IMG/VR virus record: IMGVR_UViG_3300020215_000038 | Coordinates: 1 to 41,272 of that record | Reading direction: 5' to 3' (one strand) | Source of the DNA: a virus | DNA length: 41,272 nt | Shown: positions 4,096 to 30,637 of the stretch, piece by piece | Numbering within the stretch: the stretch's first letter is position 1 | How the letters are laid out: every line of letters begins with the position of its first letter | Position numbers and translations under genes: made by a program | The notes under the pieces: generated by a model | What the model saw: the letters and a program-made list of their open reading frames with translations, nothing else | Told to the model about the DNA's origin: nothing | The model's database searches: none

Positions 4096-4364
4096 ACAAT
4101 TTGATTTAATCCCCCGACACGATCCGGCCGGGTCGTCCGAGGGATCCCGATAGCGGTAAAAGCCCATGCATGGGCGGGTGAGACGCGAAGACCTCGCGCC
4201 TTATTCGCCCATTTTTTATTGCTATCGGGGCCAAGTTTTCGCGTCCGGACCTTCGATCACCGTAGTCGGATACCGGGCCGACCCGGGCGCGATCCAAGAG
4301 TGCGGAAAGACTCCGCATACGTTTGCGGTAGATCGTAAACCGCCAAAACGAAAGCAGGTCAGCG
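4096..4364 (+). promoter_or_regulatory. 269-nt structured non-coding gap in the head module (candidate ncRNA / terminator plus restart leader)
   Basis: Only large gap in an otherwise overlapping late operon. Long-range helix 4146-4154/4221-4229; hairpins 4162-4175, 4184-4198, 4273-4286, 4301-4317, 4325-4343; T-run 4212-4217. Confidence 0.35.
4172..4220 (+). terminator. Possible intrinsic terminator (gggcg...cgccc stem enclosing cgcga/tcgcg hairpin, then attttttatt)
   Basis: GC stem 4172-4176/4206-4210 followed by a T-rich run. Confidence 0.3.
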
Positions 4365-5306
4365 ATGGAAAACGAGCCTAAAGAGACGTTCGATAAGGCG
4401 GTCGACTCGGTGGTCGACGGTCATTTCGACCGTGGGGCGGCGGCCCCGGAGGCGAGCTCCCCTCAAACAAGCGCACCCGAGCCCAAGGATGAAGGAGGGA
4501 GCGACCCTCTAAAAACGCCCAGCAATCCGGCGGCCGGCGGGGAAAAGGTCACACCTGGAAAGGAATTCGGCCCCGTTCCTTACGACAAGTTCCAGGAGGC
4601 CATTCGTAAGAGGCAAGAAGCGGAGAGGCAGCTCCAGAATTTCTCCTCGCTTCTTGACGACCCTGAAGTGTTCAAGCGGTATCTCGAGCGGCAAGGGTAC
4701 TCGAAAGACGAGATCCGCGAGGAAATGCGCTCGCGCGGCATGGCGGTCCATGAACCGGGCCAGGCCAAGTCGATTTATGACCGCGTGATGGAGCGCGTGT
4801 ACGGAGATCGGGCGCACGCTTTGAAGCCAGAAGAAGCGGCCGAAATCCGGAACATCGTGGCCTTGATCGAGGCCGCCTCGCGTGAGATCGCCGACGAGAC
4901 CACGCGCCCGCTCAAGGGCTTTGTGGAATCAAAGCAGCGTGAAGAGGCCGTCGACGCCGAGCTTTCTGAGGCCGAAGAGGCAGCCAAGGAAGACGGCATC
5001 GACTTTGAGAAAGAGGCAATCCCCGGGATGCAGCTTCTTCTCAAGGAAATGCAGGATCGGGACCCCCGGTATCGCCGGAACCCGCCCTCTGCCATGTTCC
5101 TCTACAACGCGGCCGCCAGGCGAATTCTGAAAGAAAAGACGGTTTTAAGGGGTCGTCAGGAAGCGCGGGACGAGAAGAAGGGCAACGCCCGACCGCTCTC
5201 GCCTCAAGTCACCGGGAAACCCGCCGAGCCGAAAAAGCACGTCAAAACCGCCGATATCGACGCGGAAATTGACGCGCAGCTCGACGCGATGGGCTACCGG
5301 GGATAA
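4365..5306 (+). CDS. Scaffolding-like protein (acidic, helical/coiled-coil)
   Basis: 313 aa, E/K/A/R-rich, directly upstream of the major capsid gene. Confidence 0.6.
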   Translation: MENEPKETFDKAVDSVVDGHFDRGAAAPEASSPQTSAPEPKDEGGSDPLKTPSNPAAGGEKVTPGKEFGPVPYDKFQEAIRKRQEAERQLQNFSSLLDDPEVFKRYLERQGYSKDEIREEMRSRGMAVHEPGQAKSIYDRVMERVYGDRAHALKPEEAAEIRNIVALIEAASREIADETTRPLKGFVESKQREEAVDAELSEAEEAAKEDGIDFEKEAIPGMQLLLKEMQDRDPRYRRNPPSAMFLYNAAARRILKEKTVLRGRQEARDEKKGNARPLSPQVTGKPAEPKKHVKTADIDAEIDAQLDAMGYRG

Positions 5307-5326: not shown

Positions 5327-6313
5327 ATGGCAACCATTACGGTTCCCTCGCAAGAAAACGCGAGCATTTTTGAGACCCTCGCCACCCATATCTTCGAGAA
5401 CCACGGCGAAGAGATTGGCAACGCGGCGATCGCCAAGAACTACACGATGATGATGCTGGACCGCAAAGGGTCCAAGAAAATCGTCGACGGCGGTCTGGAT
5501 TTCGCGGAGCCGGTCCTTATCCGTGAGAACTCGAACTTCGGCTTCGGGAATGCCTATAGCCAGATCGACGCTGACTATCAGGACATGACCCGTGAGTTCA
5601 AGTTCGACCCGAAGGTGTATCGGGGGACGTTGGTCATCAATGCTCTGCACGAAGCACAGAACGACGGCCGGTCGGCTATCAAGAAGCTTCTGAAGACGAT
5701 CCGGCTCCAGGCGGACACGACGATCGAAAACGACATCAACGCGGCTCTGTGGACGGCGTCGCCGGCCGCGAACGCGCCCGAGTCGATTCGCTCGATCGTT
5801 TCCGACACCCCCACGACGGGAACCCTGGGCGGCATCACGCGCCTGGGGAACTCCTACGCGCAGAATGGAGCGTATACGACCGCGATCACGGATATCGGTT
5901 CCGAGGCCGGCCTGTCGACGCTCCACGCTGAACGCGCCACGATGGGCGGCGATGCGAAGACGGCTCCGGATATCGCGGTGACCACCCCTATTCTTTGGGG
6001 CGGTCTCTTCGGTTACATGGACAACCTTCGGCGCATCAAGGCCGATGAAGAGGTCGTGAAGCTCGGTTTCGACAATTTCTACGTCGGAACCGCTCTTCTG
6101 GGTCATGACGCTGCATGCCCTGCGAGTCATTTTTACTATCTGAACTCGCGGCATCTGTTCTTCAAGATCCTGAAGAAGGGCAATTTCGTGTTCGAGCCGT
6201 TCTCCCGCAAGGATAACAGCCTGAACTCGACGTCCATCTTCTATCTCTTCTACAACCTCACCACGAACCTGCCGGCGGCCCACAAGGTCCTGACGGCGGT
6301 TTCGACGACCTAA
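5327..6313 (+). CDS. Major capsid protein
   Basis: 328 aa ORF after the scaffold-like gene; position and size; the antisense 329-aa ORF is a GC shadow. Confidence 0.75.
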   Translation: MATITVPSQENASIFETLATHIFENHGEEIGNAAIAKNYTMMMLDRKGSKKIVDGGLDFAEPVLIRENSNFGFGNAYSQIDADYQDMTREFKFDPKVYRGTLVINALHEAQNDGRSAIKKLLKTIRLQADTTIENDINAALWTASPAANAPESIRSIVSDTPTTGTLGGITRLGNSYAQNGAYTTAITDIGSEAGLSTLHAERATMGGDAKTAPDIAVTTPILWGGLFGYMDNLRRIKADEEVVKLGFDNFYVGTALLGHDAACPASHFYYLNSRHLFFKILKKGNFVFEPFSRKDNSLNSTSIFYLFYNLTTNLPAAHKVLTAVSTT

Positions 6314-6327
6314 AGGGAGAAGCGACC

Positions 6328-6873
6328 ATGAGAAAAGCTCTTTTTGGCTTCCTCGCGCTCCTTCTTTCCGCGGGCGTGGCGATGGCCTACGACCAGCCGG
6401 TCGATCCCGGGCTCGTTGAGCATGGGGGTTCGTCGGCTGCCGAGGGCGTGAAAGTCTACCGTCTGGTCCGGAACCCGGTGGTTCTGGCCAACACGGGCTC
6501 TTTCAGCTCCGGCGAAGTCGTGGTTTGGGACACGGTGTCCGATGACAACGTGACGGTCAACTATCCGAGCCGGGTCGGCATCACGGGTTCGAGTGATGCT
6601 GTGGCGGGTGTGGTTGTTGGGACGATCCCGACGGCCGACTCGACCGGCACGGCGGTGACCGATCTTGGCAAGCGGAACTGGGGCTATATCCAGATTTACG
6701 GTAAGGCCCTGGCTTCGGTTGACGGGACCGGCATCACCGTCGGTCGCGGTCTTCGCGCCTCGCAGTTTGACGGCGCGTTCGTCGCGGCTGAGACGACCGA
6801 TTCCGGTGGCGTCGCGTTCGCGTACGACACCACGACCACGGGGCAGATCGAAGTCTTCGTGAGGAATCGTTAA
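6328..6873 (+). CDS. Beta-rich Gly/Val/Thr protein with N-terminal Sec-type signal peptide; pattern resembles DUF2190-type capsid decoration/cement proteins
   Basis: MRKALFGFLALLLSAGVAMA/YD signal; SD gggaga 7 nt upstream; sits right after the capsid gene. Confidence 0.7.
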   Translation: MRKALFGFLALLLSAGVAMAYDQPVDPGLVEHGGSSAAEGVKVYRLVRNPVVLANTGSFSSGEVVVWDTVSDDNVTVNYPSRVGITGSSDAVAGVVVGTIPTADSTGTAVTDLGKRNWGYIQIYGKALASVDGTGITVGRGLRASQFDGAFVAAETTDSGGVAFAYDTTTTGQIEVFVRNR

Positions 6874-6876
6874 GCA

Positions 6877-7155
6877 ATGAAAACAGGCGTGTGGGGGTTC
6901 GTTCTAGCCGTTCTGGCGGCAGTCGGCTCCCACACGCCATGTTTTGCCGACGAGGTGGAAGTGCCGTTCTCGGTCTACGCCGAGCGCTTCCAGGCCGAGG
7001 CCAAGGAAAAGGGCCTTAACCTTTCGTGCGCCGACGAGGCCGACGGCTGCATCAAGACAAACGGCACATTTTTTGTGGTCATGACGTACAAGCCCCTGAC
7101 CGAAAAGGGGCGTGAGCTGATTAAAGAGCTTTCGTTTAAACACATGAGGCGGTAA
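6877..7155 (+). CDS. Small secreted protein (92 aa)
   Basis: MKTGVWGFVLAVLAAVGSHTPCFA/DE signal-like N-terminus. Confidence 0.6.
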   Translation: MKTGVWGFVLAVLAAVGSHTPCFADEVEVPFSVYAERFQAEAKEKGLNLSCADEADGCIKTNGTFFVVMTYKPLTEKGRELIKELSFKHMRR

Positions 7156-7895
7156 TGGCAAACACGACCTTTGCGAACTTAAAAAAAAGCTGCCTCCGGA
7201 AGGCCGGGAACTGGTACACGGCCTCCGATTCGACGCTGCTCGAGGTCGCGGGCGGCCTTATTAACGACTGCATTTCGACGATCCAGGCGCTTTCGCCCGA
7301 TTCGCTCTACTGGCGAGACTTAGACAACACCGTCTCGACGACCGCCTCCCAAGCCTACGTCGACCTTTCGGAAACCGACATCCTTCAGATCCTAAACGTC
7401 TACCAGCGCGAATCCGACACGAAGCTGACGCGCGTGGACCGGAGAACCTTCGTGGGTTTGAGCCCGGACACGACGGCGCATTCGGGGACGCCCGACCTCG
7501 CCTACGACGAGGAGCAAATCCTAAACGTGAGCGGCCAGAACATCTTCCGTCTCTATCTTCTGCCGACGCCGGGGAGCGCCATCACGATCCGCTACGACTA
7601 CATCAAAAACGGCCGCTTTACAGCAGACGGAACGGCCGCCGACTCCGAGTTTTGCGCCCTGCCGTCGACGTTTGACCCGCTTATAGCCGCGATGTTTAAG
7701 CCTCGCTTTTTAGAGGTTTTAAGCCCCCAGGATACCGGCGCGATCACGAAGGCCGAGAATGCCGAGAGCGAGGCGATTTCGCGTTTCTTGCCGCTTCTCA
7801 CCTCAAAGATTGACGAGTCTTGGCAGGTGGGGTCCTTCCGGTACGCCCGGAACCGAAAGCCCTTCACCGTATCCGCAACCCCGACCCCGTCATGA
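7155..7895 (+). CDS. Virion protein, possible head-tail adaptor
   Basis: 246 aa; TAATG junction with upstream gene; position between head and tail genes; no motif verified. Confidence 0.55.
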   Translation: MANTTFANLKKSCLRKAGNWYTASDSTLLEVAGGLINDCISTIQALSPDSLYWRDLDNTVSTTASQAYVDLSETDILQILNVYQRESDTKLTRVDRRTFVGLSPDTTAHSGTPDLAYDEEQILNVSGQNIFRLYLLPTPGSAITIRYDYIKNGRFTADGTAADSEFCALPSTFDPLIAAMFKPRFLEVLSPQDTGAITKAENAESEAISRFLPLLTSKIDESWQVGSFRYARNRKPFTVSATPTPS

Positions 7896-9070
7896 GAATA
7901 GACGAGCTAAAGCTTAACTTCTCCGACATCCGCGAGCGGCTTGTAATTTTCTTTGTCCTCCTCATGCCGTTCTATCTAAACCACTCGAAGAACTTCGGAA
8001 ACCTCACGATGCGCGTGACGCATGAGCATTTCTTCGAGCTTTTCGCGATCTTTATATTCGCGTTCATGATCCGGAATATTTGGGTCGCCATCGGGCTTAT
8101 CTGGACGCTGTTTCTCCACATCTTCCACGACTTTACCGGCGGCGTGTACCTCCGAAACATCTTTTCGTTCGCGATTATTTATTTCGTCGCCCGGGAAATC
8201 ATGACGCACGAGCTTAGCCGCCGGGTTATAAGGGCGATCCCGATCCTCCTTGCGGTCCAGGTCTGGATGATGGTTCTTCAGATCATCCGCTTTGACGTTC
8301 TTTTCAACTCCGACCAGGGAAACCGCGTCGAAATCGTGGGCTTTATGGGCCTTAAAGCCATCTCCGGGATGTTTATCGCGATGCTTATCCCGTTTGTCCA
8401 TCCGGTCGTCGGTTTACTAAGCCTGGTCCTTATCGCCGTCACGTCCGAATCAACTGGCGCTCTCCTTGGGGGCGTGGCGGCGTTTGTTTTTTCGCTCTAT
8501 CACCGATCAAAGCGCCTCTTTATCGCGGCGCTTGTTGTGTTGACCATCGCCGCCGGCGCCTTCGCTTACAAAGACTCTTTCGCCGGGATGTTCACCGACC
8601 GCGCGCGGCTCTGGAAGGTTGTCTTAAAGGACGCGGTGACGCACCCCATCGTCGGCTTTGGCCTTGATTCCTTCCGGAAGGTGACCGACAAAAAGCCATT
8701 CATGTATTTCAAGGACGTGCCGACCCAGGAAACGGGGAAGGCGATACCCACAAAGGACGGCTTCTTCGGTGACGCAAAGGTTTTCACGCCGGACGCCACG
8801 GCCGACCCCTGGGATAACGCCCACAACGAGTACGTCATGAATTTCATGGAGTTCGGGATCTTGGGACTCCTCATCCCGTTTTTTCTTTTCCGGGATTTGG
8901 CCCGGCGATTCCGGCCGACCGAGGCGTCGGTGGCCATCGGCGGGTATTTCATCGCGCTTCTTGTCATGTCGATCGGGCAATTTCCGTTTCATCTTGTCCG
9001 GATCATGTTTTTATTCCCGGTCCTATTAGCCATCTACGAATACGAAACCGTCTTTTTTACAAAGGAGTAA
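7892..9070 (+). CDS. O-antigen ligase / Wzy_C-family polytopic membrane protein (start refined to ATG 7892)
   Basis: 392 aa, many hydrophobic segments; signature blocks DRARLWKVVLKDAVTHPIVGFGLDSF and DNAHNEYVMNFMEFGILGL; ATGA overlap with upstream stop. Confidence 0.8.
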   Translation: MRIDELKLNFSDIRERLVIFFVLLMPFYLNHSKNFGNLTMRVTHEHFFELFAIFIFAFMIRNIWVAIGLIWTLFLHIFHDFTGGVYLRNIFSFAIIYFVAREIMTHELSRRVIRAIPILLAVQVWMMVLQIIRFDVLFNSDQGNRVEIVGFMGLKAISGMFIAMLIPFVHPVVGLLSLVLIAVTSESTGALLGGVAAFVFSLYHRSKRLFIAALVVLTIAAGAFAYKDSFAGMFTDRARLWKVVLKDAVTHPIVGFGLDSFRKVTDKKPFMYFKDVPTQETGKAIPTKDGFFGDAKVFTPDATADPWDNAHNEYVMNFMEFGILGLLIPFFLFRDLARRFRPTEASVAIGGYFIALLVMSIGQFPFHLVRIMFLFPVLLAIYEYETVFFTKE

Positions 9071-9073
9071 GTC

Positions 9074-9925
9074 ATGGCAGAGAAAGCGGGCTTGACCCAG
9101 AAGAACATCGAAACCGTGAACGAGTTTCAGAAGGAAATGGAGACTAAAGCGCTTCTGGCCAAGTCCATCCAGGAACTCGACGCCCAGCAGAAGTCGATTA
9201 AGGGCGTCATCCGGCAGCTCCAGGCCGAGTACAACGAAAAAGACAAGCAATTCCGGCAGATTTTGGCCGAAATCGGCTACCAGTCGAACACCCTGGCCAA
9301 TATCGAGCGCCAGATCGCCCAAAAATCGAAGGAAGCGCTCGACCGGATCGCCGAGAAAGAAAAAACCCTCGACACGCACGTCGCCGAGTACCAAAAAGCC
9401 CGGAACGAATACGAGGCTCTCTTAAAAGAGCAGCGCCGCCTGACCGAGGAGCTAAAAACCAAGTCCCAGAAGCTCACCGAGGACTCGGACCGCTTAAAAG
9501 CCTGGGTTGAGACCGCCACGCAGTCGATCAACGACCGCGAGAAGGCCTATGCGGAGTCGCAGAAAGCCGTCACCGACGACGTGAAGAAGCTAAAAGCGGC
9601 CAAAGAGGCGGCTGAGGCCGCCGAGAAGGCCCTGGCGGCCAAAAAGGCCGAATACGCCAAGACCGACAAGGAATACGCGCTTCAAAAAGAGGCCCTCGAC
9701 AAGCAGCGCGAGGCGCTCGAGGCCAAGCGCCAGAAGGACGAGGACGACTACAAGGCCGCGATGGAAAAGGTCGTGACGCTCAAGGCCTCCGTCGAAGCCG
9801 AAAAGCGCGACTTAAAAGACCAGGCCGATGCGGTCCGCGAGGAGCGGCTTCGCGTGACGGCGCTTGAAAAGCGCGTGAACGACCTCATCAAGCGCTACAA
9901 CCTCGAAAAGGAAGCGAAGGGTTAA
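9074..9925 (+). CDS. Long coiled-coil protein (K/E/A/Q-rich)
   Basis: 283 aa; SD aggag 6 nt upstream; heptad-like composition. Confidence 0.65.
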   Translation: MAEKAGLTQKNIETVNEFQKEMETKALLAKSIQELDAQQKSIKGVIRQLQAEYNEKDKQFRQILAEIGYQSNTLANIERQIAQKSKEALDRIAEKEKTLDTHVAEYQKARNEYEALLKEQRRLTEELKTKSQKLTEDSDRLKAWVETATQSINDREKAYAESQKAVTDDVKKLKAAKEAAEAAEKALAAKKAEYAKTDKEYALQKEALDKQREALEAKRQKDEDDYKAAMEKVVTLKASVEAEKRDLKDQADAVREERLRVTALEKRVNDLIKRYNLEKEAKG

Positions 9926-9928
9926 AGC

Positions 9929-10249
9929 GTGTCGGACATCTCACTTGAACCGCTTTTAAATTCGCGGCTCGTTAAAGGGCCTTCCGGCCCCACGACCAAC
10001 CGCCAGGTAACGCTCGTCTCGGGTACGCCCAAGAAGGTGACACCCACGTCGGGTTGCAGCGCCATGCACATCTTTAACAATACCGCCGTCAATATCCGAT
10101 ACGGCGGCTCGGGCGTGGACGGCTCGTCTGGGGTCGTTTTGTTTAACCAGTCGACGCTTGTTATCAGCTCGCCGAAATCGGATTTCGAGATTCACTTTTT
10201 CCAAGGATCCGGAAGTGACAAAACGCTGGATATTGTCGAGTTTTTTTAG
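9929..10249 (+). CDS. Hypothetical virion-module protein, 106 aa (GTG start)
   Basis: ORF track; ends TTT TTT TAG within a T7 run. Confidence 0.5.
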   Translation: MSDISLEPLLNSRLVKGPSGPTTNRQVTLVSGTPKKVTPTSGCSAMHIFNNTAVNIRYGGSGVDGSSGVVLFNQSTLVISSPKSDFEIHFFQGSGSDKTLDIVEFF

Positions 10250-11642
10250 CCTCGTCCTCGCCTCAGGCGTCGCCCTGGCCGACGGCCCGAGCCTTCCTCC
10301 GCTTACGGTGGAGGAGCAAGACGGGAGTCCCGCTGTTATTCCGGTCCTAAAGATCAAAGTCTCGAACGGAACGCTGACCGATGACACCGGCGGGACGGTT
10401 TCTCTTACAACGGGCGGTGGTGGTAGCTCCGGTAGCCCCGGAGGTTCCAACACGCAAGTCCAATTTAATGACGCCGGGTCTTTTGGAGGGGATGCGGGGC
10501 TTGTCTACAACAAAACCACAGACAGCCTTTCGATAAACGGCGATGTCACGATTTCTGGCGACAACGTAACACTTGCCACGAACACCGACCGCTTCGTTCT
10601 TATGGCGAACGGTTCGACATACGCCCCGGAGGCCATCGACCTCGGCACCGACACGACCGGAAATTATGCGGGATCCTCGTCAGAGGGCGGGGCCGCGACG
10701 ACGGCGACGGCCCTAGCCGCAAACGGCGCAAACTGCACGGCTGGCAACTATCCTCTTGGCGTGGATGCCTCCGGAGCCGTTGAAACCTGCACCGCCGATG
10801 ACGACGTTCCGGATGCCGGTGAGGTGAGCGATACCGCTCTTGCCGCTGGTGCTGTGGATGGCGGGAACGCCGGAGAAATTGAGGATGCGAGTGTTACTGC
10901 CGATGACCTTGGAGCGGATTCGGTCAGTTCTTCCGAATTAAACGCCACGGGTGTTGAAGCCGAGCTCGAGGCCGTCCTAGACCTAAACGAACTCCAAGCT
11001 CAGATCGGAGACGCCCAGATTGCGGACGGAGCCGTGGACGGTGGTACGGGTGGCGAGATCGCGGACGGATCACTCACGACGGCCGACTTGGGCTCAGGCT
11101 CCGTAGCAGACGATGAACTCGCCACGACCGAGTCGATCCAGCTTCAAGTCCAGAGCGCCAAGGTGACTGGGGCCTTTGTGACGGCGACGGTCAGCGGAGC
11201 GGACACTTCGACCCAGGGCGCTCAAATTGACGCCGGTGACGGGAACTGGCGGCTTCTATTCGACGCCACGACCGACGAAGCGGCTGTGTGGGACGTAAGG
11301 CTCCCAGACTATTGGGCCGCACATTCGGAACTCAAAATTATGTACTCCATGACATCTGGCACAGCAAACGAAGTCGAGTTTGAAGCCGCCATCATGTGCA
11401 TCTCGCCCGGGGATGCTGCGGACATTGGAACCGCGAGTTTTGCGGCTGCTGCGGTTGCAGCGGACACGGTTCCGGGTACAGCCGGACACCCGGATGCGGT
11501 GAATATTACTCTTACCGACGACTCTTGTGCTGCTGGGGATCAGATGTTTATTTACGTCTCAACAGATGCGGATGACGCAACAAACGACGACGCAACCGGG
11601 GACCGCGAGGTGGTGGACGTTCTTTATGAATTTACTCGTTAG
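10215..11642 (+). CDS. Tail-fibre-like protein with signal-peptide-like N-terminus (start proposed GTG 10215; track start TTG 10158)
   Basis: SD-like aagga 7 nt before GTG; (V/M)TKRWILSSFFSLVLASGVALA/DG; Gly/Ser linker then NTQVQFNDAGSFGGDAGLVYNKTTDSLSING fibre-type motif; internal repeats. Confidence 0.6.
   Translation: MTKRWILSSFFSLVLASGVALADGPSLPPLTVEEQDGSPAVIPVLKIKVSNGTLTDDTGGTVSLTTGGGGSSGSPGGSNTQVQFNDAGSFGGDAGLVYNKTTDSLSINGDVTISGDNVTLATNTDRFVLMANGSTYAPEAIDLGTDTTGNYAGSSSEGGAATTATALAANGANCTAGNYPLGVDASGAVETCTADDDVPDAGEVSDTALAAGAVDGGNAGEIEDASVTADDLGADSVSSSELNATGVEAELEAVLDLNELQAQIGDAQIADGAVDGGTGGEIADGSLTTADLGSGSVADDELATTESIQLQVQSAKVTGAFVTATVSGADTSTQGAQIDAGDGNWRLLFDATTDEAAVWDVRLPDYWAAHSELKIMYSMTSGTANEVEFEAAIMCISPGDAADIGTASFAAAAVAADTVPGTAGHPDAVNITLTDDSCAAGDQMFIYVSTDADDATNDDATGDREVVDVLYEFTR
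10851..11139 (+). repeat. Two diverged copies of a 33-aa fibre repeat (AVDGGNAGEIEDASVTADDLGADSVSSSELNAT / AVDGGTGGEIADGSLTTADLGSGSVADDELATT)
   Basis: 18/33 identical residues by eye; copies start at about 10851 and 11041. Confidence 0.6.
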
Positions 11643-12366
11643 CCTCCTTCTTCTCGTCTCAACGACCGCGTTCGCAAACGTCGAGTACGACGGGACCGAT
11701 GACATGCAGTCCTGCGGGACAAGCGACGTCATTACCGAAAACGGGGCCATTACGATTTGCTGGTGGGCCAACCGAAACGGGGCGGGTGGTGGTGGTAATG
11801 CTCGTATCCTACAGCGTGGCTCGGTCGTTTTATTCTTAACCGGGACAGGATCCCTTTCTTACGAGTTTCAGGTGGCTGGAACAACGACGCTCCGACGCGC
11901 AACGGCCAATAGCACGATAACGGCCGATACTTGGGAACATTGGTGCGTGAAATGGGACGGCTCAACAACCGCCGCAAACGCCGATATATTTAAAAACGGA
12001 ACCGAGACGACCTACCAGGCGACTGTGAACGGCGCCACGCTCACCAATAACTCGACCGACACCCTCTACATCGGGAACCGCGCTGACGGCCTCCGTGCCT
12101 GGGACGGGTTTATTGATGAGTTTGCGGTTTGGAGTTCCCAGCTTTCCAACGCCGAGATCGCACACCTGGCGGCCAGCCGGACTCGAGGACTCCCACTTCA
12201 AATTAGCCCTTCGAGCCTTAAATATTACCTCCCGTTTGACGAGTGCGCCGAAGGGGCTGCTTGTGCCACCGCCTCGATGTTCCGAGACCGCTCCGGCCAA
12301 GGCAACCATTGCTCACCGTCCAACAACCCGACCGGCAGAGGGGGAGCGATCCTGTCGTATCCATGA
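11626..12366 (+). CDS. Secreted LamG / concanavalin-A-like lectin-fold protein (start refined to ATG 11626)
   Basis: MNLLVSLLLLVSTTAFA/NV signal; W.HW..KWDG...IFKNG...LYIGNR...WDGFIDEFAVWSSQLSNAEI matches the Laminin_G_3 pattern. Confidence 0.7.
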   Translation: MNLLVSLLLLVSTTAFANVEYDGTDDMQSCGTSDVITENGAITICWWANRNGAGGGGNARILQRGSVVLFLTGTGSLSYEFQVAGTTTLRRATANSTITADTWEHWCVKWDGSTTAANADIFKNGTETTYQATVNGATLTNNSTDTLYIGNRADGLRAWDGFIDEFAVWSSQLSNAEIAHLAASRTRGLPLQISPSSLKYYLPFDECAEGAACATASMFRDRSGQGNHCSPSNNPTGRGGAILSYP

Positions 12367-12806
12367 AAAAACTATTTGTTGTCGCTTTGCTTTTAACACA
12401 GAACGCCTACGCCGAGGAAGTGGTGACGCATTCCGGCTCTACATACCACGGCTGCTCGTCCATCGGTAATACGAGCGTGTTTCTGACCAACCCAAACGAC
12501 TACAGCACAATCAAGCCCGGATACATCTACCTTCCGAATGGGTGTAAGAGCCTTCCGGCGGTTCCGGCCAAATACCTAAAGGTCGAAAACGGCTCTGTCG
12601 CTGAAATGACGCAGAGCGAGAAAGACGCAGTAGACGCTCCAGACCTTGCCGCCGCAACGCTTATATCCGAGCGTGAAACGCTTCTTTCTCAGATTGAGGC
12701 AGACGACACGAACTGGGCCAGCATGACAACCGCCCAGAGGCTGGCGGTGGCTAAAAAACTCCTGAGGCTTGAGGTGCTTAAAAAAAGGCTCGGAGGCAAT
12801 TCATGA
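12363..12806 (+). CDS. Secreted protein, 147 aa (start refined to ATG 12363)
   Basis: ATGA overlap with LamG stop; MKKLFVVALLLTQNAYA/EE signal peptide. Confidence 0.65.
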   Translation: MKKLFVVALLLTQNAYAEEVVTHSGSTYHGCSSIGNTSVFLTNPNDYSTIKPGYIYLPNGCKSLPAVPAKYLKVENGSVAEMTQSEKDAVDAPDLAAATLISERETLLSQIEADDTNWASMTTAQRLAVAKKLLRLEVLKKRLGGNS

Positions 12807-12904
12807 CGCGCAGACAGATCCTCAGACGAAACAACGTCCGTTACTGGCTCGTTGTTTTGGGCTATTTTGCGCTTGTTTTCAGCGCGAGGCTCTCCCATGC
12901 CTAA
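12803..12904 (+). CDS. 33-aa signal-peptide-like microprotein (MTRRQILRRNNVRYWLVVLGYFALVFSARLSHA)
   Basis: ATGA overlap with upstream stop; ends 8 nt inside the next gene; basic n-region plus hydrophobic core; not in track. Confidence 0.35.
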   Translation: MTRRQILRRNNVRYWLVVLGYFALVFSARLSHA

Positions 12905-14477
12905 ATTCACCGTCGCGCCGCACGGCGGCTTAAACCTCCGATTCCCGCAGCATCGCCTGACCGATAGAAAGACGCAGAAGGTCCGGCGGCTTGTGAACTT
13001 TATCTCGCTTGATGGTGTCATTAAGAAAATGAAGGGCGCGGAGCGCTATGATTCGACCTCCCGCGGCGCCTCATGCACCTGGCTTAAACGCATCTATTAC
13101 GAGGACAGCGGGGACAAGAAGCGCTATTTATTCGCCATCATCGACGGAAAGATGTTCCGGGGGACGGATCACAACCAGCTTTTAAACCAGGTAAAGATCA
13201 GCAAATCTTTCGACTCCCTGATCGACCCGAACGTGTTTCCGCTGGACTGCACCATCAAGGTCGCGGACGTCGTTTCAACCTTCGTCGTCGACGGGAAAAA
13301 CTTCTTTAAATTCAACGGCAACGACGGCGGGGAATGGGAGAAGCTCCCGACCAAGAACGACATCGACGGCAATGCGATCGAGCCGATCGACATGGTCGAA
13401 TACCTGGACCGCGCGTTTGTCCTCGTCAAAAACCGGAACGTCATCATCCACTCGAAGAACCTAAACCCCGAGGTTTACGACGACTCGACAGACTGCGGAA
13501 TCATCGACTGCCCGGCCGGGAAGGGCGGCTTCCCGCAGAAGCTCATCGTCCACCGGGGCTTTTTATTCGTGGTTCACGAGGACTATATCGCGCCGATTTC
13601 CGGTTCCTCCACGGCGACCTTCGGGATCCGGCCCGGCGACATAATCCACGGTTACGGCACGAGGGCACCGCGGTCGGTCCTGAATTTAAAAACTAAATTC
13701 GGGTTTTTGAACTCCTACGACAACGAATACTACACGACCACCGGCACCCAGGACGGCACCAATGAGACGCCCGTTTCCTACGAAGCGCCGCTGTCGCGCC
13801 TCATGAACCTCGTGAAGGCCAAGGACACCGTGGCGCACCTGGATACTGAGCTTAACTGCATCCGGATTAGCTACGTCCCGGCCGGCGGCTCGAGGCTTAA
13901 CGAGGAGATTCTTTTATCCCTCACCGAAGGCGAGGGCCGGGACGGCGGCGGCAAGTGGTGCGGCCAGACGCGCGGATTCGGCATCAACTGTTACGCCCAA
14001 TGGAACGGCCGAAACGACCAAAACGAACTCACCATCGGCCGGTCCGATTCGGGCCTCGTCATGTTCATGAACCGGACGCAGAACATCGACGGAAGCCCGA
14101 TGTTTGTCGATTTCGTCTCGGCCGACTACAGCGACGACGAGACAAGCGAGCTTCAGTTTGAAGAGTTCTGGATCGACGGAAAGCCCACGGGCGACTTCGG
14201 CATCCCGTTTTCCTACTACCTCGACAGCCGCTTGACGACCGTGGGGCAGCAAGACCTTGAAATGACAGGCGAGCAGATCAACCTCGGTTTAATCGAAATC
14301 GCAGACCAAGAGACTTTCGTAAACGGCTTTCGCCCCAGAATCGACCGCTCGAAAGGGCGGATGATCCGATTTCAGATCACGGGGAACCTTTTAAACCGCG
14401 ACATCGAATTTAATACGATCCACGTTTTCTATAACAAGCAGTTTACGAAGTTCTCGAAAACTCTAGTCGGGAGATAG
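12897..14477 (+). CDS. Large tail structural protein (nozzle/tubular-like by size and position); start proposed ATG 12897
   Basis: 526 aa; gagg 6-7 nt upstream of ATG; the track N-terminal extension (TTG 12852) lacks support. Confidence 0.6.
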   Translation: MPKFTVAPHGGLNLRFPQHRLTDRKTQKVRRLVNFISLDGVIKKMKGAERYDSTSRGASCTWLKRIYYEDSGDKKRYLFAIIDGKMFRGTDHNQLLNQVKISKSFDSLIDPNVFPLDCTIKVADVVSTFVVDGKNFFKFNGNDGGEWEKLPTKNDIDGNAIEPIDMVEYLDRAFVLVKNRNVIIHSKNLNPEVYDDSTDCGIIDCPAGKGGFPQKLIVHRGFLFVVHEDYIAPISGSSTATFGIRPGDIIHGYGTRAPRSVLNLKTKFGFLNSYDNEYYTTTGTQDGTNETPVSYEAPLSRLMNLVKAKDTVAHLDTELNCIRISYVPAGGSRLNEEILLSLTEGEGRDGGGKWCGQTRGFGINCYAQWNGRNDQNELTIGRSDSGLVMFMNRTQNIDGSPMFVDFVSADYSDDETSELQFEEFWIDGKPTGDFGIPFSYYLDSRLTTVGQQDLEMTGEQINLGLIEIADQETFVNGFRPRIDRSKGRMIRFQITGNLLNRDIEFNTIHVFYNKQFTKFSKTLVGR

Positions 14478-14478
14478 C

Positions 14479-15891
14479 ATGAAACGCCGCCTTGCGCTTG
14501 TCTTTTCATTCATCCTTGCCACCCAGCCGGCCCAGGCCGGTCTGATCTCATTACCCGAATATTTAAGTGGTAACGACGTCACGATCTCGAACCTAAACAC
14601 GACGAACACGACGCTCGAGGACACGATCAACGGCGGCATCGCCGGCGGCGGCGTGAATATCCAGCCCGGGTCCATCACCTCGATCGACATGGCGAACTCC
14701 ATTTCTCCCGTGAAGCGCTGGGACGAGGCGTTTTCGGACTTTACGCCCTCGGGGATGCTCCCGGCGACCTCGGCGAACCTCACCTCGAATATTTCGGCGG
14801 GTGTGTCCTACGTGAACGGCCTCCGAATCGAGAAAAACGCGACCGCCAACACCTACACGGCCTCGAAAGACACGTATGTCTACATTTCAGAGACCGGAAG
14901 CTATCAATTCCAGGAAGTCGCCAACGGCGCCGCGGCCCCGGCGACTCCGGCAAATACGCTCCTCCTCGCGAAGGTCGTAACCGACACCGACAACATCACG
15001 TCGGTCTCGGACCTACGGTCGACGAGCATCACCATCACGGCGACGGCCTCGAACTTCCCGTTGAATTACCGCGACCAGGCCTTTATTTCCTGGGACTCGA
15101 CCACAACCACCCACGTCGAGCCCGGAAACCTCGCCATCGGGACGACGATCTATACCCGGACCTCCGACACCTCGTCGCGGAACATCACGACCGCCGCGAA
15201 CTGGATCGAAGGGGGTGTGCCGACTCTCACGACCCCGATCAAGGTCTATATTTACGCCTACAACGACTCAGGCTCCTCGTTTGATTTCAAATACTCATCC
15301 GCAGACCCGGTCTATTCGGATACCTCATCGAACACGGCCGGAATCCTTCGCTATTACACCTCGGGCGGCACGAACTACCGGGCGATTGGATGGCTTTTGG
15401 CCTCGGCCGACGCGGTGCAGTCCCACCACATCGGCAATTTTTACGACATGGGGGTCCGAAACGTCGTCCGAAACACCTACACCGCCGTCCGGGCGATCAC
15501 GACCGCGATGCCCGCCGACAACACGACCCCGCTTATCAGCGAAGGCCAGGAGGTCTTCCGCGTGGCCATCGTGCCGTCTAACGCGAGCTCTAAGATCCGC
15601 GTAACGGCCAAGGTCTCGATGGCCCCAAGCACGAGCGAACGCGCGTCCGCTGCGCTCTTTGACGGCTCAAACCAGCTTCTGACGGCCCAGGCCTCGCCGA
15701 CCGGCGCGACAAACCATCAGCTCACACTTACGACCATTCACACGCCCGGGACGACCAATTTTGTTGAATACAAGGTCCGCGCTGGCGGCCATTCGTCCTC
15801 GACCGCGTACTTAAACGCCAACGAATCGGGGACCGGGTTCTATAGCGGGCTCCTCAACACCTTTATCGAAGCCGAGGAGATCGGAGCGTAA
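14479..15891 (+). CDS. Tail fibre / receptor-binding-like protein with classical signal peptide
   Basis: MKRRLALVFSFILATQPAQA/GL; then fibre-type N-terminus (SNLNTTNTTLEDTINGGI...) and the motif YVNGLRIEK...TYVYISETG...LLLAKVVTD..ITSVSDLR. Confidence 0.65.
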   Translation: MKRRLALVFSFILATQPAQAGLISLPEYLSGNDVTISNLNTTNTTLEDTINGGIAGGGVNIQPGSITSIDMANSISPVKRWDEAFSDFTPSGMLPATSANLTSNISAGVSYVNGLRIEKNATANTYTASKDTYVYISETGSYQFQEVANGAAAPATPANTLLLAKVVTDTDNITSVSDLRSTSITITATASNFPLNYRDQAFISWDSTTTTHVEPGNLAIGTTIYTRTSDTSSRNITTAANWIEGGVPTLTTPIKVYIYAYNDSGSSFDFKYSSADPVYSDTSSNTAGILRYYTSGGTNYRAIGWLLASADAVQSHHIGNFYDMGVRNVVRNTYTAVRAITTAMPADNTTPLISEGQEVFRVAIVPSNASSKIRVTAKVSMAPSTSERASAALFDGSNQLLTAQASPTGATNHQLTLTTIHTPGTTNFVEYKVRAGGHSSSTAYLNANESGTGFYSGLLNTFIEAEEIGA

Positions 15892-16850: not shown

Positions 16851-17854
16851 TGACTCCATACGAAGACATCCGGGTCGCTCTAGGCGGGCGCAGGAAGCCT
16901 CTAATCGGCAACGAGCAAACCGCGCATTTTGCCCGAGAACTGAAAAAGGCCGGAAACATCCTTTTTACGGGAAAGGATGAGTCGGCTGAGAAGTCGGACA
17001 CTTCAGACCTCGACCTCGCCATTAAATACAACCAAGCCATGACCGGAACGCCCGATTTTGAACTTAAAAAAGCGCGCGTCATGGCCGACGTCCGAGGCCA
17101 GGAGGCCCTAGAGCTCGAACGGGCAAAGCGCGGCATGGCTCAACAGGACTATCGGGCGGCGCTTGAAAGGGAAGGCGGCGCTCCTCAGCGTGGACGCAAG
17201 TATGACGCGAGCCTGGGGGCCTTTGTAGACGAACCCGAGCCTGCGAGCGTCAAGACGCTGCGCCTTAAAGAACTGGATTCGCTGGCTGGCACGGCTGAAA
17301 ACGTGCGCCAGCAATCCGGCGCAGTTGAACGCGCAACCCGGTCGCTTCCGAATGTCAAAACCGGCCTATGGCATAACGCTAGGCGCGGCTTTTTAAGACT
17401 GACCGGCCAGGACGTTCCAGAGCTTGCTGATTGGCAAGGCTTAAAATCCATTCTCACCAACACGCAGCTTGATTATTCGGACCGGACGAAAGGCGCGATT
17501 TCTGACAGAGAAATGGCGACTTTTGCGAAAGCCGTCGCCAATGACGACTTCGCGACCGTTATGCAGATGAAGCATGTGCTCAGGGCCTACTACGACAAAC
17601 TACACGGTGGCCTCGAGTCCGGTATGAGCGCCTACGAGGATATGTTCAACGACGATCCGAGAAAGTATAAGTCGTTGCAGAATCTTCCGGCTAAAGACCC
17701 GAATCTGTTCGGCGACCCCCGAGCCGCCGGAGCGGCCGGACAGGGCAACACGCCAAACATGCCAAGCTTCGCAAGCCCCGAGGAAGCAGACGCCTCCGGC
17801 CTTCCGGCTGGAACGATCGTTATGGTGAGCGGGAGGAGGTACGAAATTGGGTAG
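16850..17854 (+). CDS. Internal-virion/ejection-like protein (334 aa)
   Basis: TAATG junction; position. Confidence 0.55.
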   Translation: MTPYEDIRVALGGRRKPLIGNEQTAHFARELKKAGNILFTGKDESAEKSDTSDLDLAIKYNQAMTGTPDFELKKARVMADVRGQEALELERAKRGMAQQDYRAALEREGGAPQRGRKYDASLGAFVDEPEPASVKTLRLKELDSLAGTAENVRQQSGAVERATRSLPNVKTGLWHNARRGFLRLTGQDVPELADWQGLKSILTNTQLDYSDRTKGAISDREMATFAKAVANDDFATVMQMKHVLRAYYDKLHGGLESGMSAYEDMFNDDPRKYKSLQNLPAKDPNLFGDPRAAGAAGQGNTPNMPSFASPEEADASGLPAGTIVMVSGRRYEIG

Positions 17855-19094
17855 ATTCCTGGACGAACCGGCGGCGCCGAGGCGTGGACGGTTTTTGGAT
17901 GAATCACCGTCACTTGTCGATGTATTGCCAGGAGCGCGAGCGGCGAAAATCGTCGCCGACAAATATGAAGGCTTAAAAAGTGGTTTTGCGGATAGGGTCT
18001 CTAAATTAGCCCCAGATAACATATCGGTTCCCGCGCCCCGGCTTGGTTTACACACGGCACTTTTACCGAACGTTATGCCTCTCAGGCCCGTCAAAATGCC
18101 CGCCAGACAAGCAATAAAGGAGGGGGCTGAGGCGGCTTTTGACATGGCGTCGGGTGAAGTGGCGGGTCCAGCCGTCAGGACTACGGGAGCTGTAATTAAG
18201 GGAGTCTCCAAAATCCCGTCCTGGATTGGAGGCCGTGCGATTAATTTCAGAATCAAGCCGAGCAATTATCAATTTTCTTACGGTCGCAATCCGGGACAGG
18301 CCGTCGCTGAAGAAATTGGCCCGAAGCTCACTATGGGGCAACTCGAGAGAGCTGTTGGAAAGCGGTCTGCTGAGTTGGGGTCTGACGTTCAATCAAGATT
18401 AGACAAAGAAGGTTACATTGACGTTAGCGACGCCTTTGAAAATTACCTGCAAAGAATCGGAAAGCTAAACCGATCAAAGCGGGCAAATAAAGGTATCGTT
18501 GGAGACCTAAAAGATCAACTGACCGATTTTGCTGAAACCGGAATGTCTGAGATGGGGCTTCGGATGGGAGGAAATCGAGCTTATATTCCCGCCAACAAAG
18601 CTTTGGAGTTTAAGCGATTTGTTGCGGACCAGGGTTCCTTTAAGTCCCTTGATCCAGCTACTCGTTCAGTCGCAAAAGCGGTTAATAAATTCCATGCAGA
18701 CACCAATAAAGGGATCCGCAAATTTGATCCAATTGCTGGCCAGAAAAGCCATCGCCAATCGGAACTCATAGCGGCCGAGGGTGCTATTAAGGCCAGAAAA
18801 AACACAGAGCAAAGGTTTTGGCCGATAGCTTTGCAAGAGGCGGCGCTTTTGGGCGGCGCTGGAGCTGGCGGGTTTCTCGGCGCTGGCCCGGAGGGGGCAA
18901 TGGCTATTTATGCGGCATTAAAAGCGGCTCGTAGCACCCCTGGAGCCACAACGCTCGCATCGGCCATGGGACGTACAGGCAAAGGGATGCGACTGGCAGG
19001 GGAGGCTATGCAGTCGTTTCCCGACGTCAGCCCAAGAAAAGCCTTGCTAAGAATTTTAAGTAATTCAGGAAAGTCTCTAACGGCGCGGACTTAA
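17847..19094 (+). CDS. Internal-virion/ejection-like protein (415 aa, TTG start, N-terminal GRFLDE duplication)
   Basis: Strong SD gggaggagg 7 nt before TTG 17847. Confidence 0.55.
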   Translation: MGRFLDEPAAPRRGRFLDESPSLVDVLPGARAAKIVADKYEGLKSGFADRVSKLAPDNISVPAPRLGLHTALLPNVMPLRPVKMPARQAIKEGAEAAFDMASGEVAGPAVRTTGAVIKGVSKIPSWIGGRAINFRIKPSNYQFSYGRNPGQAVAEEIGPKLTMGQLERAVGKRSAELGSDVQSRLDKEGYIDVSDAFENYLQRIGKLNRSKRANKGIVGDLKDQLTDFAETGMSEMGLRMGGNRAYIPANKALEFKRFVADQGSFKSLDPATRSVAKAVNKFHADTNKGIRKFDPIAGQKSHRQSELIAAEGAIKARKNTEQRFWPIALQEAALLGGAGAGGFLGAGPEGAMAIYAALKAARSTPGATTLASAMGRTGKGMRLAGEAMQSFPDVSPRKALLRILSNSGKSLTART

Positions 19095-19260: not shown

Positions 19261-19578
19261 TTAGTGCTGTCTTTCAACGGAGCCGATCTTGTGACCATAC
19301 TCGTCCTTAAAAACGTACGTCTCGGGCTGGGCGAATAGGTGAGACCCAGCCTCCTTCAGGCTTTGCGCGAAAGCAGCACGCCTTGGTGTGGCGCATCCGG
19401 TAAGCACCGCCAAGCAACAAAAAAACAACGCAAGTGTGTTTAATTTATGAGCCTTAGCGCCAGATGACAGGCCGTCAACCGACTTTTTTAACGTGTCCGT
19501 TGCAAAAGAGGCGAACCTAATCGCAGCTATGGCGAATACAAACAACAACCACTTATGCTTCATTAAAAAAGACTCCAT
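19261..19578 (-). CDS. Membrane/lipoprotein-like protein, 105 aa (start refined to MESFL...), C-terminal motif TYVFKDEYGHKIGSVER
   Basis: SD aagga 5 nt upstream; TAATG junction with upstream minus-strand gene; hydrophobic segment plus LAVLTGC lipobox-like site. Confidence 0.55.
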   Translation of the reverse strand: MESFLMKHKWLLFVFAIAAIRFASFATDTLKKSVDGLSSGAKAHKLNTLALFFCCLAVLTGCATPRRAAFAQSLKEAGSHLFAQPETYVFKDEYGHKIGSVERQH

Positions 19579-19802
19579 TAATGTCCTTTCGTTTTTATAC
19601 GAGTGCCGCGATCCCATAACTCGGGATACCCGGTTTTGACGCACCAAATAAACACGCGGATCATCGAAATTGCAAAGTATAAAAGGACAAATGATTCTGC
19701 GAGTGGGTAGATATCTAAAGAGATGAATATGGCGACTGCTCCGACAAATATGAATATAATCGCGCCTTCCCTGGCCACAAACCGCTTAAAGCGACCCATC
19801 AA
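19578..19802 (-). CDS. Two-TM membrane protein (74 aa)
   Basis: ORF track; 4-nt overlap with upstream minus-strand gene. Confidence 0.55.
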   Translation of the reverse strand: MMGRFKRFVAREGAIIFIFVGAVAIFISLDIYPLAESFVLLYFAISMIRVFIWCVKTGYPELWDRGTRIKTKGH

Positions 19803-20059
19803 TCGACCCTCTCGACAGTTCCGACTTTACGACCAAGAGAATCCTTATACACATACTTTTCGCGCGGCGCCGGCGCGACGTACGGCCTCTCCTTCATTGA
19901 TTTCCCAAGAGCCTGAACACCAATCGCAGACGCCTTCACAGTATTCCCAAGAAACCCTCGAACAGCGTCCCCAAAATTTCCTTTTCGCTTCCCGTCTCCG
20001 GCGTGGGCCGTCGATACAAATAACAAAACAGCAACGATTACTCCGTAGGCTGCCTTCAT
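19799..20059 (-). CDS. Secreted protein, 86 aa (start refined to MKAAYG...), C-terminal motif KYVYKDSLGRKVGTVER
   Basis: SD aggag 6 nt upstream of ATG at 20059; MKAAYGVIVAVLLFVSTAHA/GD signal peptide. Confidence 0.6.
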   Translation of the reverse strand: MKAAYGVIVAVLLFVSTAHAGDGKRKGNFGDAVRGFLGNTVKASAIGVQALGKSMKERPYVAPAPREKYVYKDSLGRKVGTVERVD

Positions 20060-20156
20060 GGGGATCTCCTTGTTTTCATTCCTCATTACGGTAGCACAAG
20101 GAAAAGCCTTTTTGGCTAAATGGGAATGTTAATAAAAACGAAGGTCGAGGGAGGTT

Positions 20157-22074: not shown

Positions 22075-22382
22075 CAGTTCCTTTGGGCTCTAAATTCGAC
22101 TCGGAGAAGCCGCGCTGGTCGCTCGTCCCGTGGCGGGAGCTCGAGGACGTCGTCCACGTCCTGACCGCGGGCGCCCGGAAATACTCGGATGGAAACTGGA
22201 TGCACGTCGAGAATGCCCGCGACCGCTACTTTTCAGCGGCCATGCGGCACCTTGTCGCCTGGCAGGGAGGGGAGAAAAAGGACCCCGAGACCGGGCGGTC
22301 GCACCTAAGCCATGCGATATGTTGCCTTTTATTCATCTCATGGTTCGATAAGGAGGCCGAATGTCGCAATCCAAGCGAATGA
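22071..22382 (+). CDS. dATP/dGTP pyrophosphohydrolase-N-terminal-like (DUF5664-type) protein
   Basis: 103 aa; KFDSEKPRWSLVPWRELEDVVHVLTAGARKYSDGNW...AMRHLVAW..GE..DPETGRSHLSHAICCLLF matches the family pattern recalled from phages; TTGA junction. Confidence 0.6.
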   Translation: MTVPLGSKFDSEKPRWSLVPWRELEDVVHVLTAGARKYSDGNWMHVENARDRYFSAAMRHLVAWQGGEKKDPETGRSHLSHAICCLLFISWFDKEAECRNPSE

Positions 22383-30618: not shown

Positions 30619-30637
30619 AAGTATCAGCAAAACCCCT

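Follow-up and report, generated by a model that had tools for sequence, protein, structure and literature searches.

Wzy_C enzymes are GT-C-type proteins that transfer a glycan linked to undecaprenyl pyrophosphate (Und-PP) to an acceptor at the periplasmic face of the inner membrane. Phages are known to encode serotype-converting Wzy proteins, Salmonella phage epsilon15 being one example, and phage particles can themselves be glycosylated: mycobacteriophage virions are modified on capsid and tail proteins by soluble glycosyltransferases of the cytoplasm. The Wzy_C genes of Pseudomonas phages D3 and phi297 and VG_p25 of the Variovorax phage VarioGold are neighbours of lysis or integration genes, point the opposite way and have been read as morons expressed from the prophage; genes of the D3 type are sporadic and moron-like, often oppositely oriented and accompanied by partner inhibitors, and serotype-specific phage polymerases are typically sporadic morons (PMC9658991). 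The O-oligosaccharyltransferases (O-OTases) act on Sec-exported periplasmic proteins, use Und-PP-linked glycans with relaxed donor specificity and, in the case of TfpO and TfpM, are encoded beside the gene of the acceptor pilin (PMC9829042; PMC12800693). The gene analysed here lies on the IMG/VR virus record IMGVR_UViG_3300020215_000038, a stretch of 41,272 nt that was examined at its full length and is called the window below, and it encodes a polytopic inner-membrane enzyme of 392 amino acids (aa). Whereas phage Wzy_C genes have so far been lysogenic-conversion extras, this one is a fixed, co-translated component of a tail block, and what is new in it, as far as sequences can tell, is a Wzy_C subfamily with a new genomic role.

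An earlier reading of the DNA from its letters alone (the sequence-only reading) had assigned the protein to the Wzy_C family, and a profile hidden Markov model (HMM) search bears this out: Pfam Wzy_C (PF04932) covers residues 175-328 (model positions 3-147 of 149) with E = 9.3e-10 and 38.9 bits, above the curated cut-off of 31.7. A chance match is excluded because 22 of 23 diverged relatives of the enzyme match the same model. Among 5.8 billion proteins, 16 close homologues were found at 32-47% identity, all of them metagenomic, and the profile built from these was searched against sequences clustered at 50% identity: 189 clusters fall below E = 1e-30 and 855 below E = 1e-10. Among the 150 top-ranking clusters that are listed, the majority have a length of about 400 aa and a match spanning most of the profile. 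Ten residues (R41, Q130, R237, G255, G257, W307, H311, G322, F340 and F364) are unchanged down to 21% identity, and five more (D259, S260, N312, P365 and R370) are at least 90% conserved over the same range, while for E313 and R262 invariance extends only to the 16 closer relatives (alignment A1). The conserved positions include those of two signature blocks, the first carrying the invariant R237 (8600-8602) together with D259, S260 and R262, which are invariant or nearly so, and the second carrying H311 (8822-8824), invariant across relatives and a candidate catalytic base. In WaaL and the O-OTases, Arg residues have been proposed as ligands of the pyrophosphate and a His as the base, and mutation of the His abolishes activity of the Wzy_C enzymes tested (PMC12800693; PMC9829042). 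Judged by these matches and residues, the enzyme is a genuine member of the Wzy_C superfamily with an intact active-site Arg/His pair.

The placement of both blocks on the periplasmic side, which the sequence-only reading had expected, is likewise supported. The enzyme contains 12 uncharged hydrophobic cores, and a partition on these 12 cores puts 17 Lys and Arg residues in the N-in loops versus 7 in the short opposite loops; because of this count, loop 227-320, which holds both signature blocks, is predicted to be periplasmic, as in the family's standard topology. This topology was derived from the hydrophobic-core partition and the charge count, and the helices of an AlphaFold2 (AF2) model are consistent with it. 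Two other identities for the protein were considered and rejected: a degenerate, non-catalytic relic is ruled out by the invariance of the catalytic residues, and a packaged ejection protein by the need of a 12-helix enzyme for a bilayer.

The closest structurally characterised protein is the WaaL ligase of Cupriavidus metallidurans (7TPG/7TPJ), which is alike in having a Wzy_C domain, a length of some 400 aa, about 12 helices, N- and C-termini that are predicted to be cytoplasmic, and a large periplasmic loop before transmembrane helix 10 (TM10). The Arg of its R-x3-W helix and the His of its H-N-x-Y/F motif align with those of the enzyme, and the profile alignment with 7TPG pairs R237 with WaaL R265 and H311 with WaaL H313. 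In contrast to these likenesses, the similarity is marginal: 7TPG is the only match of the family profile among PDB sequences, and a weak one (E = 0.6), a phmmer search of the same sequences with the single enzyme sequence gave nothing, and no NCBIfam model, ligase models included, matches the enzyme at E <= 1. The gene is also in a phage tail operon and not in a lipopolysaccharide (LPS) core cluster. By closeness to curated models and by genomic location, therefore, the protein would not be placed in WaaL sensu stricto. Since no NCBIfam model recognises it, we regard the enzyme as belonging to a subfamily not described before, and we predict that it is a functional Und-PP-glycan transferase.

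The expression context of the gene is suggested by its junctions. The frame on the plus strand translates to the 392-aa protein described in the sequence-only reading, with both quoted blocks present, and the overlap reported there is confirmed: the start context reads ...GTC ATG A..., so that the ATG and the TGA that ends the upstream 246-aa gene have bases in common (ATGA). This ATG, at 7892, is favoured over an in-frame upstream TTG at 7820 because the N-termini of homologues align from that Met. The stop TAA (9068-9070) is followed by GTC and then by the next ATG at 9074, which is preceded by an AAGGAG Shine-Dalgarno sequence; the earlier statement that the next gene starts 4 nt after the stop is correct as an ordinal, the actual spacer being 3 nt. 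Of the neighbours then proposed, the adaptor upstream stands, whereas the gene immediately downstream encodes a coiled-coil protein and the first fibre-like gene follows about 1.1 kb further on. The gene is, as had been said, well away from the integrase gene (23179-24096). A promoter and terminator scan of the sequence flanking the enzyme gene found nothing above shuffled expectation, a consensus scan being weak evidence, and the GC content at third codon positions (GC3) of the gene, 0.73, is similar to that of its neighbours.

The same place is kept in relatives. Using a set composed of contigs that encode enzyme homologues and IMG/VR loci found with family patterns (numbered L001 onwards), we find the gene order capsid - g181 - g92 - adaptor - enzyme - variable region of 0-8 kb - g526 - SP470 - g70 - g244, including where the capsid protein is only 24-27% identical to that of the window. 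The enzyme lies between the adaptor and the nozzle-like gene g526 in at least 16 distinct metagenomic relatives, and the coiled-coil gene adjoins it on one side or the other. By the gene calls of the database, which were made independently, an overlap of 1-4 nt joins the enzyme gene to the gene upstream in six relatives (L001, L002, L003, L004, L007 and L021), and an overlap joins it to the gene downstream in four (L001, L004, L020 and L021). A tblastn search with the enzyme, SP470 and g526 against 50,697 deposited phage records returned no match. The description of the gene as wired into the late operon is therefore upheld by the synteny comparison: its place and its overlapping stop and start codons recur in many diverged relatives, with no promoter-like or terminator-like signal at its flanks. 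On this evidence, we consider the enzyme gene to be inherited vertically as part of the core of the tail module in this lineage, and not to be a moron; it is translationally coupled to the tail genes and, through that coupling, its product is presumably made together with theirs late in infection. Set beside the D3-type genes, with which it shares being phage-encoded, polytopic, of the Wzy_C family and found in a temperate phage, it differs in being a core gene coupled to adaptor and tail genes and in having no similarity to deposited phages, so that it would not be classed as a D3-type conversion moron.

The interval between the enzyme and g526 also houses other genes of related chemistry in some relatives. 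In L021, an adenosine 5'-phosphosulfate (APS) kinase gene (Pfam E = 9e-19) and a sulfotransferase gene lie there (5436-6568); in L027, a sulfotransferase gene alone (5627-6259, E = 8e-17) is found in the fibre region between the enzyme and the nozzle-like gene; and L009 (14160-15296, equivalent to L024 7264-8433) has a second, diverged Wzy_C paralogue with a Pfam score of 39.4 bits just upstream of the nozzle-like gene. The sulfotransferase and APS-kinase genes suggest sulfated glycans or proteins. Because these three kinds of insertion recur in the same interval, it appears to be a recurrent home of glycan-tailoring functions.

The second trait of the lineage is export. The sequence-only reading had noticed that fibre and LamG proteins beside the enzyme bear signal peptides; this is so, and the trait is lineage-wide. 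Judged by sequence rules (Lys/Arg, a hydrophobic core and Ala-x-Ala) and by conservation, Sec signal peptides of textbook form begin six proteins of the window (g181, g92, g475, the LamG protein, g147 and SP470), all encoded within 8 kb of the enzyme on the same strand, and three of these are core genes present in every evaluable relative with the enzyme. Proximity of this kind would speak for the availability of acceptors and not for their use. The signal peptide of g181 is kept as a feature, not as a sequence, in nine relatives (L001, L002, L004, L008, L009, L010, L014, L015 and L016), and the homologue of g475 in L001 begins MKKFLLLLTLLLSTSLSYA, cut before DGPQ. In SP470 the signal peptide is retained in more than 40 homologues despite sequence drift, with K2 and the Ala at -1 nearly invariant. 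Large fibre-like proteins encoded in the relatives' variable regions, the longest of 1471 aa, nearly all start with K/R, a hydrophobic core and AxA, while signal peptides are never found on the adaptor, the coiled-coil protein, g526 or the downstream internal-type proteins. Mis-called starts that would mimic signal peptides are ruled out, as no internal Met occurs in the mature N-termini and the K/R-hydrophobic-AxA pattern persists through sequence drift. These patterns indicate a lineage that routes its outward-facing proteins via Sec, with adaptor, nozzle-like and internal proteins predicted to stay in the cytoplasm. We found no report in the literature of Sec routing of fibre-type proteins in tailed phages.

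SP470 is the best characterised of the exported proteins. Its N-terminal two-thirds are conserved, and it carries a swappable TNF-like head at the C-terminus, the last ~130 residues occurring in unrelated versions; because of these unrelated versions, the variable tip is likened to receptor-binding tips. An AF2 model with a predicted local distance difference test score (pLDDT) of 86 shows the C-terminal domain as a TNF-like jelly roll resembling Chlamydia Pgp3 (E = 6e-9), and the model taken as a whole finds phage proteins whose names, where they have one, are tail fibre, minor tail or tropism determinant. As to the remaining neighbours (Table 1), g181 and g92 occupy the usual head-decoration or connector position, with signal peptides conserved in all relatives examined. 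Searches of g181, g92, g526 and the internal proteins against PHROGs and Pfam at relaxed E-values gave no family match, NCBIfam likewise had no model for the neighbours of the enzyme, and the label of putative nozzle for g526 rests on its position.

Table 1. Positions of the enzyme, its signature blocks, the surrounding head and tail genes and other features of the window
Feature	Coordinates	Strand	Basis
Wzy_C-superfamily polytopic inner-membrane enzyme, 392 aa, ~12 TM helices	7892-9070	+	Pfam Wzy_C, relatives, synteny
Predicted periplasmic block DRARLWKVVLKDAVTHPIVGFGLDSF (DRARLWK...GFGLDSF)	aa 236-261, nt 8597-8674	+	Alignments A1, A2
Block DNAHNEYVMNFMEFGILGL (W-DNAHNEY...EFGILGL), predicted periplasmic start of TM10	aa 308-326, nt 8813-8869	+	Alignments
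g181, directly after major capsid gene, core; signal peptide MRKALFGFLALLLSAGVAMA, cut before YDQP	6328-6873	+	Conserved feature
g92, small Cys-containing protein with N-terminal signal peptide	6877-7155	+	Kept in L001, L004, L008, L009, L010
Adaptor protein, 246 aa, without signal peptide	7155-7895	+	Homologues in L001, L020, L021 match PF24175 SU10_adaptor; 40-60% identity in relatives
Lys/Glu-rich coiled-coil protein, 283 aa, without signal peptide	9074-9925	+	Sequence; NCBIfam gives only SMC-like coiled-coil noise
g475, fibre-like, accessory; signal peptide MTKRWILSSFFSLVLASGVALA, cut before DGPS	10215-11642	+	Sequence; absent in some relatives
LamG/concanavalin-like lectin-fold protein, accessory; signal peptide, 7 Cys	11626-12366	+	Pfam Laminin_G_3, E = 1.4e-20; relatives in L001, L016
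g147, small, accessory; signal peptide MKKLFVVALLLTQNAYA, cut before EE	12363-12806	+	Sequence
g526, conserved tail-core protein, putative nozzle, without signal peptide	12897-14477	+	45-70% identity in relatives; always directly upstream of SP470
SP470, tail-fibre-type; signal peptide MKRRLALVFSFILATQPAQA, cut before G	14479-15891	+	152 homologues; AF2; fold matches
g415, last large structural-block gene, Ala/Gly-rich hydrophobic C-terminus	17847-19094		
Small open reading frames (ORFs), signal-peptide or transmembrane-like N-termini	19261-20086	-	
298-aa gene adjacent to the PF18909 gene	21178-22074		
103-aa protein, dATP/dGTP diphosphohydrolase N-terminal domain	22071-22382		PF18909, E = 3.6e-32
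Small ORFs, as above	22756-22950	-	
SLT lytic-transglycosylase domain protein	25188-25646		
Two adjoining N6/N4 DNA methyltransferase genes, ~47 nt overlap	29479-31330		Pfam E = 1.5e-50, 2.4e-22

Is export in this lineage tied to the enzyme? Sixty-five IMG/VR loci encode the central fibre domain of SP470, and all were searched with HMMs of the enzyme family and of SP470. An exported SP470 orthologue is present in 23 of 23 enzyme-bearing locus records (16 distinct loci), whereas about 50 distinct loci have the fibre domain but no enzyme and no polytopic protein within 10 kb, and nearly all of their fibres have ordinary N-termini. With the same heuristic, ORFs with signal-peptide-like starts number 77 of 298 in the enzyme-bearing loci versus 48 of 696 in fibre-domain loci without the enzyme, counts that are not phylogenetically independent, as the enzyme-bearing loci form one clade. 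What the comparison does tell is that the two traits have stayed together through a very long divergence.

The explanation that we tentatively prefer, and consider quite possible, is that the enzyme is made late and, as a Und-PP-glycan transferase, O-glycosylates exported proteins of the phage itself in the manner of PglL or TfpO. It would act as an O-OTase of this type, and the exported phage proteins emerging in the periplasm would receive whatever Und-PP-linked glycan the host supplies, in some relatives after tailoring of the glycan by phage sulfotransferases. The modified proteins would be free to form disulfide bonds in the periplasm, and would then either be added to fibreless particles once the compartments mingle at lysis or have their effect on the cell surface. 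In this scheme we infer the glycan donor, the sites on the acceptors and the incorporation into the virion. Taken to its full length, the scheme would have the outer layer of the particle built outside the cytoplasm, with fibres, lectin-fold proteins and possibly a capsid-associated protein exported by Sec, O-glycosylated en bloc and docked at lysis, so that virions are cloaked in host-type glycan; as a complete chain this is rather unlikely. What recommends the PglL-like explanation is that it would account for late co-expression, because enzyme and acceptors are made together, and for a gene that stays in the core set from host to host, since the phage brings its own acceptor along and enzymes of this kind tolerate many donors. 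A donor-promiscuous transferase with a phage-encoded acceptor could therefore be inherited vertically across hosts. It would also account for the need of export at all. Like PglL, PglS, TfpO and TfpM, the enzyme has a Wzy_C domain with the conserved His that is essential in those enzymes, and like TfpO and TfpM it is encoded among genes for exported proteins. The mycobacteriophage system offers a further likeness, with glycan genes in the structural module and virion surface proteins as the target (here proposed), and a difference, since here a periplasm-facing en bloc transferase is combined with candidate targets that are exported. The PglL-like explanation does require that fibres attach after lysis, or that the modified proteins act off the virion. 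The P22 tailspike attaches in vitro, which makes attachment after lysis physically plausible.

Several observations weigh against this explanation. At 392 aa the enzyme has the size of WaaL and Wzy proteins, PglL and PglS being 525-600 aa long and TfpO and TfpM, at 420-460 aa, closer; it ends 3 residues past TM12 and has no extra C-terminal periplasmic domain, and Pfam finds no PglL_A or Wzy_C_2 domain in it. For the enzyme, AF2 gave a mediocre model (pLDDT 63, predicted template-modelling score (pTM) 0.67), with the expected run of helices present, and a Foldseek search of the PDB with that model gave nothing below E = 1, RodA ranking second at a template-modelling (TM) score of 0.36-0.40. 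Ligase, polymerase and O-OTase are not separable by sequence (PMC9829042). The candidate acceptors are phage fibre-type proteins and not pilins, and the acceptor motif test was negative: windows rich in Ala, Pro, Ser and Thr occur at 0.13 per 100 aa in the exported proteins versus 0.25 in the non-exported fibres of enzyme-less phages, and the NGAAAPATPAN loop belongs to a fibre domain common to phages without the enzyme. The sequence-only reading had offered such stretches as PglL acceptor sites, and this idea failed the control, the loop it quoted lying in a widely shared domain. By family domain and conserved His, as well as by the exported proteins nearby, the enzyme would thus resemble the O-OTases, and by size, extra domain and acceptor context it would not. 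Signal-bearing fibres also occur without the enzyme in L049/L050/L080, in L061 and perhaps in L039, so that fibre export may be wider than the clade and not strictly tied to the enzyme; the association of enzyme and export, coming from essentially one clade, may have had a single origin. It may also be that the exported proteins form no part of the virion; we found no precedent in the literature for export of tailed-phage fibres followed by attachment after lysis, and the glycan on the phage proteins is itself hypothetical. In the loci named above, L049/L050/L080 and L061 (about 9600-11800) have no Wzy_C or polytopic gene nearby and show convincing fibre signal peptides, for example MLRKSLLLAAILSFLTAPQAAKA, cut before DD.

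The strongest alternative, which we regard as possible if doubtful, is remodelling of the host surface, in which a WaaL- or Wzy-like enzyme puts a host Und-PP-linked glycan (O antigen, capsule or a common-antigen unit) on lipid A-core or on a growing chain. The phage receptor would be altered, giving superinfection exclusion or keeping progeny from sticking to debris, and the exported proteins would be a separate story. This is the role of every characterised phage Wzy_C protein, D3 and phi297 among them, with VG_p25 as a candidate (PMC9658991), and a ligase or polymerase would fit the 392 aa, the 12 helices and WaaL 7TPG as the only structural-sequence match. A temperate phage with an integrase would suit it as well, and the sulfotransferase and APS-kinase genes of relatives could equally tailor a host surface glycan. 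Yet the known conversion genes are sporadic, near lysis genes or int/att and often opposite, whereas the enzyme is a fixed core gene with overlapping codons and deep divergence, similar by tblastn to no Wzy_C gene in the 50,697 deposited phage genomes. A polymerase accepts a single kind of repeat unit, which would sit badly with vertical inheritance across an old clade, and remodelling leaves the lineage-wide export of fibres unexplained. The suggestion in the sequence-only reading that the enzyme remodels the surface of the dying host is weak on timing in particular, as LPS already in the outer membrane would probably not be exchanged within one latent period.

A second alternative is improbable. 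It holds that the enzyme sabotages the envelope by draining Und-PP intermediates late in infection, thus blocking O-antigen or capsule display or weakening the wall for lysis, or else that it serves as a docking platform in the membrane where exported fibre proteins would be folded or kept until lysis. Either role would fit a membrane protein that is co-expressed late, Und-PP is a shared and limiting carrier, the gene always adjoins tail genes and the coiled-coil protein, and RodA came second in the fold search, though non-significantly at a TM score of about 0.36-0.40. The invariant catalytic Arg and His argue for real transfer chemistry and not for a scaffold, however; for lysis the phage already encodes an SLT-type lytic transglycosylase anchored in the membrane; and we know of no precedent for a sink or docking role in the Wzy_C family. 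That the gene is an ordinary lysogenic-conversion moron lying in the tail block, which the prophage would express from a promoter concealed within the coding sequence upstream, is very improbable: a temperate lifestyle fits it, late operons are known to contain morons (lom, between tail genes, and bor in lambda) and the consensus promoter scans are weak evidence, but the enzyme is at the same position in every evaluable member of a deep clade and is like its neighbours in composition, where morons are patchy and compositionally odd, and there is no intergenic space, promoter or terminator at its gene.

The genome that carries the enzyme is complete and was assembled as a circle of about 41.1 kb. 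Bases 1-127 of the window are identical to 41146-41272, and this exact 127-bp terminal repeat is an assembly overlap that marks a circular or terminally redundant complete genome; L007 is a near-identical ENA contig of 36.7 kb. Profile matches identify a large terminase, a P22-type portal and an HK97-type major capsid protein, and further genes encode, besides the integrase, an ERF/YqaJ recombination pair, two DNA methylases and the membrane-anchored SLT transglycosylase. Because the terminase, portal and capsid set is combined with integrase and recombination genes, we take the phage to be temperate and short-tailed (a podovirus), and the lineage to be one of uncultured, P22/SU10-like, temperate podoviruses. 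Among the 50,697 deposited phage records, megablast with 25 kb of the window found no DNA relative, and the best matches of the capsid protein (Mx8, BUCT555 and a Bradyrhizobium phage) are only ~24% identical. Pattern scans of GTDB genomes found no prophages of the clade, the first scan being empty and the second giving only a generic fibre domain in unrelated metagenome-assembled genomes; no relatives of the window integrase were found in IMG/VR, and no tRNA genes were found in the window. Pattern-based locus scans may miss relatives.

Several features at other places in these genomes are recorded for completeness. The SLT-domain protein has a long hydrophobic N-terminus (MKLSINAALLALAAILVLGMLALVLIW) and resembles endolysins of the signal-anchor-release type. 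The two methyltransferase genes overlap each other, and a small protein matches PF18909, a domain that we take to be that of MazZ from aminoadenine (Z-base) genome pathways; the adjacent 298-aa gene gave no family match that would make it a PurZ partner. The small ORFs on the minus strand sit in the part of the genome with the lowest GC content (0.48 vs ~0.57) and may form a cassette of lysis or moron genes running against the late operon. The gene g415 has a GC3 of 0.48 vs 0.72-0.80 in most head and tail genes, a compositional outlier that suggests recent exchange. In L002, homing-endonuclease genes are inserted in the head module, a GIY-YIG gene (4297-4863) after the portal gene and an HNH gene (7915-8451) after the capsid gene.

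If the enzyme remodels host LPS instead of phage proteins, it would be the first conversion enzyme to behave as a core structural-module gene. If it modifies the exported proteins, it would represent the first periplasmic en bloc route for the glycosylation of virion proteins, and part of virion assembly would take place after or outside the cytoplasmic phase. Glycoengineering would in that case also gain a compact O-OTase of ~400 aa, one whose partner protein is defined and which may be donor-promiscuous. Were the PglL-like scheme true in full, it would be a categorically new way to build and decorate a tailed-phage particle.

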